IMG/VR virus record: IMGVR_UViG_3300046777_002716
Location: 1-64,000 of that record
Length of the DNA stretch: 64,000 nt
Strand: one strand, 5' to 3'
Source of the DNA: a virus
Positions 2,535 through 12,042 of the stretch are shown one piece after another. Made by a program: the position numbers and the translations under genes. The notes below the pieces were generated by a model that was not told the origin of the DNA, made no database searches, and was given only the letters and a program-made list of their open reading frames with translations. The stretch's first letter is position 1; every line of letters starts with the position of its first letter.

Positions 2535-3325
2535 TGTACCCACTCCTTACAATAAAGATCATCTGTATTATGCGTTAATGGTGGACCAAACCATTTTTTT
2601 GGTGCTACTACTTTTTTACTATTAGATAACCATGCTCCCCACCAACTAAATGAACTATTACAGATGATGTGATTATTACATTTAGATTGAAGATATAAAT
2701 CAACGGCAGTATTGTTTTCTTCAGACATGGTGAATCTATTTGATTCAAAAATTTTCTGACTTTTACACCATTCAATATCATCAGAAAATACAATTACTGG
2801 AATATCATTATCAAAGTGACTCAATGCTAACTTATAATAATTAATATCCTGTACTGGGTGATGCGAATAATTTAGATAATCTCCTCTTCTAACATGTAAC
2901 GATAAAATATCAGAATCACCAAACTCAGATTCTAATAACTCATCACAAGGATTTGATATTTCTTCGATGAAAGTAAAATCATTTTTTAATTCTTCCTTGA
3001 TATGATTGAAATATTTTTCAGTTTGAAAATATCCGAAAAGATCTACATTATCTGGACAATTATTCCAGATATTCTCATCAAAATTAAAAGATGATTCTTC
3101 AATCATTATATTGTCGGTGATTTTTCTTTCCACTTCTGGTAATTTAAAGCACTGAAAAATATTAAAATCAGATCTGGCACAATTTGGATCCCTAGTTCCA
3201 ACAAAAGAACTTGGTGGTAGACAATATTCATAATTAAATTTTGATGCTATTCCCCGCAAAGAAGCATATTGGAACATTTGATTTCCAAGTCTACCAAGAT
3301 TGCCAATAGAGTTGTTAGATATCAT
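2528..3325 (-). CDS. Alpha-1,2-fucosyltransferase (GT11)
   Basis: GRLGNQMFQYA, SLHVRRGDY and NSSFSWWGAWL motifs. Confidence 0.9.
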   Translation of the reverse strand: MISNNSIGNLGRLGNQMFQYASLRGIASKFNYEYCLPPSSFVGTRDPNCARSDFNIFQCFKLPEVERKITDNIMIEESSFNFDENIWNNCPDNVDLFGYFQTEKYFNHIKEELKNDFTFIEEISNPCDELLESEFGDSDILSLHVRRGDYLNYSHHPVQDINYYKLALSHFDNDIPVIVFSDDIEWCKSQKIFESNRFTMSEENNTAVDLYLQSKCNNHIICNSSFSWWGAWLSNSKKVVAPKKWFGPPLTHNTDDLYCKEWVQC

Positions 3326-3424: not shown

Positions 3425-3565
3425 ATAATTTTTTTACTGGAAATTATAAACCAGGCGGAGAAAGAATTCCCCATCCGCACCACCAATCCTTGAGAGAGAT
3501 TGGAAACTCATAAGAGGGTCATATTTGACTCCACCAGGGCAAGTTTTAAGTCATTCCTGGACTAA
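3425..3565 (-). ncRNA. Multi-pseudoknot structured RNA resembling the cyanophage manA/wcaG RNA motifs
   Basis: Minus strand AGTCCAGGAATGACT...CCCTGGTGGAGTC...GAGTTTCCAATCTCTCTCAAGGATTGGTGGTGCGGATGGG...CCGCCTGGTTTATAATTTCCAGTAAAAAAATTAT contains three H-type pseudoknot-compatible modules. The family assignment is from memory. Confidence 0.6.
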
Positions 3566-5399: not shown

Positions 5400-5837
5400 T
5401 TATTTTTCAGTGAAAGATCTTAAAAACCAAACAAACTTACCGTGTGCCTCGTTTAAATCATCAAGTAGATTTGTAGTTCCTCTTGAATTAAGTTCTTCTG
5501 CAACTTTTGCTGCTTCACTAAACATATCTATAAGAGTTTTATGGTCATCAAGTAGGTCTTTAATCATTTCCATCTCAGATAGACCACTCTTTGCTTCTGA
5601 AACCCTTGATACTTCAGAAACCCTTGAAAGAGCACTAACTGGTTTTGCACCAAGAAAACGAATATGCTCCGAAATTCTATCAACTTCTTCAAAGAGAGCA
5701 TTATACTGCTCACCAAATAAAGTATGAATTTGATAAAAATCAGGTCCACTAATGTGCCAATGATATACCCAAGTTTTTTGAAAAAGAACAAAAAGACTTG
5801 CCTGAGTATCAGATAAAATCTTATATAGTTTTTCCAT
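5400..5837 (-). CDS. dps: Dps/ferritin-like protein
   Basis: HWHISGPDFYQIHTLFGEQY...VDRISEHIRFLG ferroxidase signature; late promoter TATAAATA at 5858-5865. Confidence 0.9.
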   Translation of the reverse strand: MEKLYKILSDTQASLFVLFQKTWVYHWHISGPDFYQIHTLFGEQYNALFEEVDRISEHIRFLGAKPVSALSRVSEVSRVSEAKSGLSEMEMIKDLLDDHKTLIDMFSEAAKVAEELNSRGTTNLLDDLNEAHGKFVWFLRSFTEK

Positions 5838-5868
5838 TATACCAATTAATTTTTAGGTATTTATAATA

Positions 5869-11195: not shown

Positions 11196-11268
11196 TTCAC
11201 CCGAGCAGGATTCGAACCTGCATCTCTTTCCATGGAAAGACGACATACCATTAGCCGCATCGGATGAA
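11196..11268 (-). ncRNA. tRNA-like RNA without a 7-nt anticodon loop
   Basis: TTCATCCGA/TCGGGTGAA acceptor; CGGC/GTCG D arm; palindromic TCTTTCCATGGAAAGA; perfect T arm GCAGG-TTCGAAT-CCTGC. Confidence 0.7.
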
Positions 11269-11270
11269 GG

Positions 11271-11361
11271 TGGGAGAGGAGGGAATCGAACCCCCGATGG
11301 TTCTTATGTAACGGTTTTACAGACCGCCGCCACACATATTGCCGACAGTAGCCACTCTCCC
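11271..11361 (-). tRNA. tRNA-Tyr(GTA) with an enlarged D loop
   Basis: GCGGT-CTGTAAA-ACCGT; long variable region. Confidence 0.85.
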
Positions 11362-11485: not shown

Positions 11486-11668
11486 TTGTCAAGGTGCGAT
11501 TGTCACTGGAAGATAATGTTTTATCCAGAGGCCCAAGATAAATCTTAGGACTTAGACTGATGCTAGAAGCAGAGCAGTGACTTGTGGTGGTCTCTCAACC
11601 ACCCTTTAAGAATACCACTCTGTCCGTTAGGGGTCAAGTGGGTTGTGACACTTAGAGAACTGTCACAA
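11486..11668 (-). promoter_or_regulatory. Main tRNA-operon early promoter with palindrome, boxB-like hairpin, structured insert and boxA
   Basis: TTGTGACAGTT..AAGTGTCACAA; TTGACC-17-TATTCT; GTGGT-TGAGAG-ACCAC; GCACCTTGACAA. Confidence 0.7.
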
Positions 11669-11673
11669 GCAAC

Positions 11674-11708
11674 AAAAAAGGGGAGGAAACTTTTGGTTTC
11701 TCTCCCCT
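11674..11708 (-). terminator. Attenuator terminator upstream of the tRNA array
   Basis: AGGGGAG-A-GAAAC-CAAAA-GTTTC-CTCCCCT-TTTTT; its 5' arm is also complementary to CTCCCCTGT in the leader ORF. Confidence 0.85.
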
Positions 11709-11732
11709 GTCTTTTTGCTTTTATGGCAGTTA

Positions 11733-11834
11733 CTACATCTGACCTACCATACTCGCAAACAGGGGAGCACCCTCAATATGCCAATAGCGGCAATCGAGAA
11801 TACTAAACTGTTTTGTGGGCATTGGGTAAGACAT
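11733..11834 (-). CDS. Putative attenuator leader peptide MSYPMPTKQFSILDCRYWHIEGAPLFASMVGQM (33 aa)
   Basis: Late promoter TATAAATA at 11856-11863, AGGT SD-like site, ATG at 11834, tandem TAG TAA; overlaps the antiterminator. Confidence 0.75.
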   Translation of the reverse strand: MSYPMPTKQFSILDCRYWHIEGAPLFASMVGQM

Positions 11835-11887
11835 TGTTTTCGACCTAAGTGTTATTATTTATAATACTTTTATTTTTAAAAGTCAAG

Positions 11888-11967: not shown

Positions 11968-12042
11968 ACCTCCTGGTTTGTGCATCGTTGAGAGGCATAG
12001 GAGGGGAAGGACTTATGCGAAGTTTGGACCTCCGCCGCCTAT
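11968..12042 (-). ncRNA. Promoter-proximal structured RNA
   Basis: TTGACA (12072-12077)-17-TATAAT (12049-12054); GCGGAG/CTTCGC and CCTCCT/AGGAGG stems. Confidence 0.4.

Follow-up and report, generated by a model that had tools for sequence, protein, structure and literature searches.

The 64,000 nucleotides (nt) analysed here, referred to below as the window, correspond to positions 1 to 64,000 of IMG/VR virus record IMGVR_UViG_3300046777_002716, a viral record of 101.9 kb. They derive from a T4-like cyanomyovirus; among named phages, Synechococcus phages S-SRM01 and S-PM2 are closest to it. On its minus strand, the window carries, from a phage late promoter to just ahead of a tRNA array, a conserved cassette that we regard, with moderate confidence and from comparison of sequences, as a ribosome-dependent leader-peptide transcription attenuator; by this means the phage probably tunes its late tRNA production to the smoothness of ribosome decoding. 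A leader open reading frame (ORF), a late promoter, competing antiterminator and terminator folds, linkage to the array and, in S-PM2, RNA contigs that read through the terminator all fit attenuation of this kind. The cassette was present in at least 116 viral contigs as well as in S-PM2, S-CREM1 and one metagenome contig. An earlier reading of the same DNA (the original prediction) had named a late promoter, a 33-codon ORF, an antiterminator, a terminator and a hairpin at the apex of the ORF. All of these were recovered in place.

A conserved leader reading frame

The T4-type late promoter TATAAATA (11863-11856; this and all other features of the cassette lie on the minus strand) has a predicted transcription start near 11850. 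It is followed by a Shine-Dalgarno-like AGGT (11843-11846), placed 8 nt 5' of the ATG within a conserved 5' untranslated region (UTR), ACTTAGGTCGAAAACA. The leader ORF (11834-11733) comprises 33 codons, encodes MSYPMPTKQFSILDCRYWHIEGAPLFASMVGQM and is closed by TAG, directly followed by TAA. Homologues were collected with a degenerate pattern for the DCRYWHI core of the peptide, which matched at least 119 viral contigs. The 121 matches listed consist of pattern matches together with S-PM2 and the window's own locus, and the 79 unique homologue sequences make up alignment A1. As the pattern enforced the DCRYWHI core, the invariance of the latter is overstated.

An intact ORF of 31-34 amino acids with the same promoter and terminator was found in 117 of the 121 matches listed. 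Throughout A1, the ATG and the ATAAATA core of the late promoter were invariant (the first promoter position varied in 10 rows). ORF lengths of 96, 99, 102 and 105 nt were all multiples of three, indels within the ORF being in frame; indels of 1-2 nt were seen in the UTR and 3' of the stop codon, outside the ORF. In the main clade, the N-terminal third displayed a ratio of nonsynonymous to synonymous differences (pN/pS) of 0.35, with a pS of 0.42 and a dominance of third-position changes. Synonymous change was suppressed in the C-terminal third (pS 0.11, pN/pS 0.97), which indicates that the RNA is constrained there and not the peptide. The 5' UTR was at least 90% conserved in A1, and its AGGTCGAA part also occurred in S-PM2 and S-CREM1, a small sub-clade being devoid of it. 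The TATAAATA-to-ATG spacing is fixed and equals that of an ordinary late gene of the window (at 5865, Dps-like ORF at 5837). Of the 12 copies of TATAAATA in the window, against a chance expectation of 6.3, 11 are on the minus strand, and this bias toward the main coding strand fits functional late promoters. These features support a leader ORF that looks translated, under a conserved late promoter.

Diverged relatives were informative about the core. In S-CREM1, which has no genus in its record and for which a new genus was proposed by its authors (PMC9964418), the cassette is annotated as hypothetical protein SCREM1_59, MNTAFIKEDIKFSDYRWYIVETPLCDKSVKLM, with DYRWYI as its core. The metagenome contig (L124) keeps the promoter, the frame, the 1:2 and 2:3 pairings described below, the terminator and tRNA-Lys, with DCLNGHPNK replacing DCRYWHIEG. 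Because both relatives change the core and keep the design, DCRYWHI appears to be largely an RNA hairpin read as codons. Other searches were negative: tblastn of the 33-residue peptide against the phage collection gave no match, the query being too short since S-PM2 and S-CREM1 do carry the cassette, and no viral contig was hit by degenerate patterns written for the P0005 and P0006 variant cores. The sole match of a fixed-length variant-core pattern (L123) was rejected as a chance hit, located inside an unrelated gene and with no tRNAs. In S-PM2, a 357-nt coding sequence is annotated on the opposite strand across the cassette (S-PM2d160, CFW42354.1; L001 2449-2805) and the conserved 34-codon ORF is left unannotated; the opposite-strand call looks spurious.

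Competing RNA folds

The 211-nt region folded with a z score of -6.55 against shuffles. Region 1 (codons 1-9 including the start codon, 11808-11833) can pair with region 2 (codons 23-31, CTCCCCTGT-TTGC-gag-TATGGTAGG, 11743-11767), which has region 3 (CTGCCATA-aaa-GCAA-aaag-ACAGGGGAG, 11702-11729) as its other partner. The 2:3 pairing, in which region 3 provides the 3' arm of the antiterminator, counts 21 base pairs (CTCCCCTGT/ACAGGGGAG, TTGC/GCAA and TATGGTAG/CTGCCATA) and was computed at -31.1 kcal/mol. The GGGGAG of region 3 is also the 5' arm of an intrinsic terminator, GGGGAGAGAAAC-caaaa-GTTTCCTCCCC with T6 (11707-11674), whose helix GGGGAG-A-GAAAC/GTTTC-CTCCCC was computed at -15.6 kcal/mol. 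As originally predicted, these two larger folds are mutually exclusive because the GGGGAG arm is common to both.

The terminator was paired in 97% of the cells of A1, with compensatory changes in 7 of its 11 pairs, and was also flagged by a plus-strand scan. For 2:3, 83% of the cells were paired, compared with 40-68% for slid controls, and double changes were recorded at 6 pairs in 17 cells, a cell number reached by none of the 500 shuffles. Examples of such covariation are the passage from TTTGC/GCAAA to TTTGT/ACAAA and from TATGGA/TCCATA to TATGGT/ACCATA or TATGAAT/ATTCATA; in L031 and L027, the top of the 2:3 hairpin is wholly replaced. With region 1 masked (ribosome footprint on the core), 2:3 formed in all 79 homologues, with a mean of -27.8 kcal/mol and z scores from -2.4 to -7.4. 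Its base stem tracked the terminator arm from clade to clade, as CTCCCC/GGGGAG in the main clade, TCCCTCC/GGAGGGA in S-PM2, GCCCCC/GGGGGC in L054, TCCTCCCTG/CAGGGGGGA in L059 and CCCCCC/GGGGGG in S-CREM1. The stop codon was located within the 2:3 loop in every clade, including those with replaced upper stems (L031, L027, the S-PM2 clade and S-CREM1).

The 1:2 pairing, an anti-antiterminator that was absent from the original prediction, brings together the two halves of the ORF, the start codon being within the 5' one. It is part of the minimum-free-energy (MFE) fold of the window's leader and formed in 80 of 80 nascent leaders. Together with the apex hairpin, it was 92% paired in A1 and at most 47% when slid. 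AAA:TTT had changed to AAG:CTT in seven sequences, and 4 of the 6 outer-helix pairs were changed on both sides. The apex hairpin itself (CTCGATTGCC...GGCATATTGAG, 11772-11798, -10.3 kcal/mol) covers codons 13-21 with the DCRYWHI core. Its 8-pair stem was 100% paired in A1, but 6 of the 8 pairs were fixed by the search pattern and the alignment alone therefore says little for this hairpin. Support came from S-CREM1, where TGCC/GGCA is replaced by the compensatory TACC/GGTA, Cys and His both becoming Tyr. RNAalifold on 13 diverse members gave 13 pairs with compensatory changes. The full-length energies in the window were -65.4 for 1:2 plus terminator (the MFE state) versus -54.7 for the antiterminated state. 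Rfam cmscan at E values up to 10 returned only chance miRNA-type matches (11652-11739), and no T-box, riboswitch or other family covered the leader. Altogether, these observations support the view that the conserved 1:2 pairing completes a classical three-way attenuator design.

The tRNA array and the amino-acid content of the leader

The next tRNA downstream was tRNA-Lys(ttt) in 104 of the 116 loci listed, mostly at 116-280 nt from the ORF and with many same-strand tRNAs after it. In the window, tRNA-Lys(UUU) (11472-11399, minus strand) is the first gene of the array and heads a run of about 30 tRNAs. The upstream neighbour varied among the same loci: tRNA-Arg in 71 (as in the window, 11962-11887, minus strand), tRNA-Ala in 14, tRNA-Asn in 9, tRNA-Gly in 3, no tRNA within 400 nt in 15 and a contig edge in 4. 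A constant tRNA-Lys downstream and a variable upstream neighbour indicate that the cassette belongs with the array. At least 6 of the 15 loci without an upstream tRNA (L005, L006, L014, L026, L044 and L053) display an extended -10-like TGCTATATT (TGCTATTTT in L044) that directly abuts the late promoter (TGCTATATTACTTGTATAAATA), an arrangement resembling the overlapping early/late promoters described for S-PM2 and RB49.

The array also has a promoter-like site of its own. In the window, this is a sigma-70-like TTGACC-17-TATTCT with a TG-extended -10 (11637-11609, minus strand), located between the terminator and tRNA-Lys and followed, before the latter, by a structured leader of about 140 nt on the same strand. 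Where this promoter comes after the terminator, it displays a TG-extended TATTCT or TATATT, and members of the main clade keep the extended -10 TGGTATTCT. Nesting of the promoter in the terminator is seen in the S-PM2-like and S-CREM1 clades (12160-12188 in L054; about 633-663 in L125, which is S-CREM1), with the -35 (TTGACA or TTGCAA) in the terminator loop and, after 17 nt, the -10 (TATTGT or TATGAT) just behind the T-tract. The idea that the terminator is the sole gate in the L054 clade, with no room for a separate array promoter, was ruled out by TTGACA-17-TATTGT overlapping the terminator, and the same applies to S-CREM1. The gating of the array put forward in the original prediction is not established either, since a sigma-70-like promoter follows or overlaps the terminator in every clade. 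As the array has its own promoter, the cassette can only add to array transcription, modulating it without being its sole gate. Just 5' of tRNA-Lys, a boxA-like GCACCTTGACAA is kept in all clades (11486-11500 in the window; L117 3165-3180, for example) and is preceded by a GGTGG...CCACC hairpin in the window and homologues.

RNA data for S-PM2 consisted of assembled contigs from the four strand-specific libraries, all of one 2017 study, that hold this stretch. They are described here in the coordinates of L117, which is identical to S-PM2 over 5,448 nt (L117 288-5735). The contigs cross the ORF (2913-3017), the terminator U-tract (3073-3078) and the spacer, reaching tRNA-Lys in X3 and X4 and tRNA-Asp, at 3499, in X1. 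RNA-library sequence is continuous across the terminator in S-PM2; the contigs bridge the terminator into the tRNAs, but a promoter-like site also lies between them. Contigs of three libraries start at 2896, 2897 and 2920, the first two being 6-7 nt after TATAAATA (2883-2890), which is a weak hint of a late start at that distance. The contigs leave tRNA-Arg and the promoter (L117 about 2797-2896) uncovered, a gap from which no conclusion is drawn.

As to amino-acid content, a recount bore out that the leader of the window uses 19 of the 20 amino acids (N is missing) and that its codons 5-19 specify 15 different residues in a row. Among 13,699 control segments of 33 residues taken from the window's long ORFs, the mean was 14.3 types, the probability of 19 or more was 0.0026 and a run of 15 different residues never occurred. 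The 62 unique leader peptides had a mode of 19 residue types, four of them displaying all 20. Once the core and the initial Met are given, 17.1 +/- 1.3 types are expected and the probability of 19 or more becomes 0.12; moreover, S-PM2 (15 types), L124 (16) and S-CREM1 (17) have less diverse leaders. On these grounds, selection on amino-acid diversity itself is not demonstrable. The DCRYWHI core, with codons held in place by the RNA hairpin, accounts for most of the high diversity, so that the "pan-amino-acid" sensing of the original prediction is only partly supported: what remains of it is that Pro codons co-vary with tRNA-Pro and that nearly all proximal tRNAs have their amino acid in the leader. 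Likewise, of the features expected in related phages, a conserved short ORF and stem covariation were found, whereas amino-acid diversity was lower in the three relatives just named.

Codons 1-21 in the window specify 16 types, which include all 13 types of the first tRNA block and all 5 of the second (15 types together). The coverage of the first block announced originally is thus complete, with 13 types according to ARAGORN and not 14. A, N, G and V are absent from these codons and, as had been stated, their tRNAs are found only in the distal array, behind further promoter-like sites. The hypergeometric probability that a random 16-subset holds those 15 types is 0.001, the 21-codon cut being post hoc. 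When 72 unique leader/array combinations were compared, leader codons 1 to core+1 (a stretch with 15.6 residue types on average) specified the amino acid of 95.9% of the first 12 array tRNAs, and of 67% of later tRNAs. Pro codons in the N-terminal part of the leader and array-borne tRNA-Pro were concordant at 78 of 86 loci. Their joint state changed at least 9 times on a tree of the intervening DNA, and independent pairs went in the same direction 6.8 times and in the opposite one 0 times (median p 0.016).

It is conceivable, though we hold it doubtful, that the leader lists, in about its first 20 codons, the amino acids served by the proximal tRNAs and co-evolves with these, in such a way that a shortage of any one of these charged tRNAs would stall the ribosome and raise late transcription of the very tRNAs able to relieve it. 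Equally tentative is the idea that Pro codons are lost where tRNA-Pro is absent and that decay of host tRNAs, starvation or anticodon nucleases could bring about such a shortage. If true, this would represent a multi-input, self-correcting control of the virus's own decoding capacity.

Further features of the locus lie on either side of the cassette. The first element in order is a perfect sigma-70 promoter (12077-12049, minus strand). Between it and tRNA-Arg, the Rfam abiF RNA motif RF03085 was matched (11968-12004, minus strand; 49.3 bits versus a gathering score of 37). About 95 nt around this motif are kept in S-SRM01 (L002 ~3430-3505), and an abiF match is also listed for cyanophage S-CREM1 (PMC9964418). 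Within the array, Rfam gave a tRNA-like match (32 bits) and a weak tmRNA-model match (26 bits) at 11197-11266 and 11268-11361 on the minus strand, neither of which was called by ARAGORN; from the synteny with S-PM2 (Lys-Tyr-Asp), a tRNA-Tyr is expected at 11197-11361.

Proposed mechanism, rival explanations and known systems

According to the mechanism favoured here, late transcripts would start about 17 nt before the ATG and, in the window, early transcripts would also enter through tRNA-Arg. With no ribosome on the leader, region 1 would pair with region 2 and hide the AUG, the terminator would form and transcription would stop. A ribosome translating smoothly to the stop codon in the 2:3 loop would cover region 2 and the loop during synthesis of regions 3 and 4, and the terminator would again form. 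A ribosome lagging or stalled in roughly the first 18-20 codons would hold region 1 open and leave region 2 free to pair with region 3 (-31 kcal/mol versus -16 for the terminator). The polymerase would then continue through the promoter and leader that belong to the array and transcribe tRNA-Lys and the following genes. We infer that translation chooses between the folds, with more read-through under slow decoding and a supply of additional late tRNA as the benefit; the dependence on the ribosome is deduced from the start codon sitting in 1:2 and the stop codon in the 2:3 loop. Since the leader has no codon runs, the most likely signal would be the overall decoding speed over a large number of codons, with emphasis on the amino acids that the proximal tRNAs serve.

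Several points weigh against this mechanism. The leader displays no tandem codon run for a regulating amino acid, the sensor by which classical attenuators are defined. Even with no ribosome present, 2:3 is the thermodynamically preferred fold of a transcript that stops at region 3 (-48.4 kcal/mol), and the outcome in that case thus depends on folding kinetics. Coupling of transcription and translation in cyanobacteria is assumed. The S-PM2 RNA data are contigs of one study, which represent neither amounts nor single molecules and in which DNA carry-over is possible. The Pro association rests on the tree of a short, recombining region, where short-patch recombination could inflate the count, and the associations for F, T, N and L trend the same way without being significant singly. 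Finally, given the promoter that accompanies the terminator throughout the clades, the latter could merely insulate that promoter.

Such insulation would suit an ordinary small late gene for a 33-residue microprotein, the terminator of which would end the mRNA and shield the tRNA promoter, while the folds would aid mRNA stability or hide the start codon. We consider this unlikely. The spacing of late promoter, Shine-Dalgarno-like site and ATG is indeed that of a normal late gene, DCRYWHI is invariant in more than 110 contigs, the N-terminal third has its low pN/pS of 0.35, S-CREM1 has the cassette annotated as a gene and the array has its own promoter. Yet the C-terminal pN/pS of 0.97 with suppressed synonymous change points to a constraint on RNA and not on protein, the invariance of the core is overstated by the search pattern, and core residues change together with stem pairs in S-CREM1 or are replaced in L124. 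A microprotein also provides no reason why region 2 should track the terminator 5' arm through at least four sequence variants, nor why the cassette should travel only with tRNA-Lys.

Still less probable, in our opinion, is a late structured small RNA (sRNA) of about 180 nt, composed of the long hairpin and the terminator hairpin, that would act in trans or serve as a processing or entry site for the tRNA precursor, the frame being incidental or secondary. Nearly the whole unit is base-paired, with covariation from start to stop codon, and attenuator RNAs are known to act in trans as sRNAs, as exemplified by rnTrpL (PMC7968998). Against this stand a frame that is open in 117 of the 121 copies listed and in all diverged relatives, ORF lengths in multiples of three, N-terminal changes mostly at third positions, the conserved ATG and Shine-Dalgarno-like site and the lack of any Rfam family match. 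A similarly low probability is given to a translation-independent switch, in which temperature, a phage or host antiterminator protein or a small molecule would set the choice between 2:3 and 3:4 and the ORF would tune folding kinetics. The two states are real and conserved, 2:3 is favoured without a ribosome when the transcript ends at region 3, and the leader with the boxA-like GCACCTTGACAA downstream hints at Nus-type factors nearby. No conserved unpaired ligand pocket was found, however, nor any riboswitch or T-box match in Rfam, and a stop codon in the 2:3 loop with a start codon in 1:2 is what a switch read by ribosomes predicts. These rivals fit fewer of the conserved features than ribosome-dependent attenuation does.

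The leader-peptide attenuators of amino-acid operons (trpL, hisL, pheL, thrL and ilvL of E. coli and Salmonella; pheST) likewise combine a short translated leader ORF, overlapping 1:2, 2:3 and 3:4 helices, an intrinsic terminator and a leader stop so placed that a terminating ribosome prevents 2:3. The cassette differs from these by the absence of tandem regulatory codons, its leader containing 15-20 different residues; by its position in front of tRNAs instead of biosynthetic enzymes or synthetases; by a T4-type late promoter, in a phage; and by a second promoter between the terminator and the first gene. Leaders composed of an upstream ORF (uORF) and a terminator, which sense antibiotics, were found by Term-seq in front of resistance genes (Listeria lmo0919, B. 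subtilis vmlR and bmrCD). There, as proposed for the cassette, any stall in the short uORF, and not the lack of a single amino acid, shifts the antiterminator/terminator balance to read-through, whereas the output here would be tRNAs in a virus and not bacterial resistance genes. The pyrBI-type attenuator shares a leader ORF without specific codon runs and the ribosome-polymerase distance as read-out, but its ORF runs through the terminator; in the cassette, the stop (11735-11733) lies 25 nt before the terminator 5' arm (from 11707) and a separate antiterminator exists. T-box riboswitches also report tRNA charging through a terminator/antiterminator choice, but they bind uncharged tRNA directly and need no ORF, and the cassette gave no T-box match. 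A functional parallel, and the closest idea found in print, is the trn L-array of Anabaena sp. PCC 7120, a supernumerary tRNA array of the cyanobacterial world that is organized as an operon and turned on by impaired translation (PMC8421152). Control is exerted by a protein repressor, TrcR (PMC10272220); a leader, attenuator or terminator is mentioned in neither of these two papers on the array.

Full-text literature searches yielded no description of the cassette and no regulatory logic for phage tRNA arrays. The genome and transcriptome papers on S-PM2 and cyanophages gave late promoters and tRNA numbers only, and the small ORFs listed in the P-limitation RNA-seq paper on S-PM2d belong to another tRNA operon, near 155 kb, with no mention of the cassette. 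The class of mechanism is classical; what would be new is its use on tRNA genes, in a virus and with a run-free leader. The cassette is compact (about 190 nt), and two phage-host pairs with it are in culture, namely S-PM2 with Synechococcus WH7803 and S-CREM1 with CB0101. It bears on why phages carry large tRNA sets and how these are deployed. With a conserved attenuator heading the array, the phage would be measuring translation performance and adjusting its tRNA output. If true, leader-peptide attenuation would reach RNA genes, viruses and a run-free leader, and the carriage of tRNAs would be tied to host tRNA depletion or defence and not to codon usage alone.

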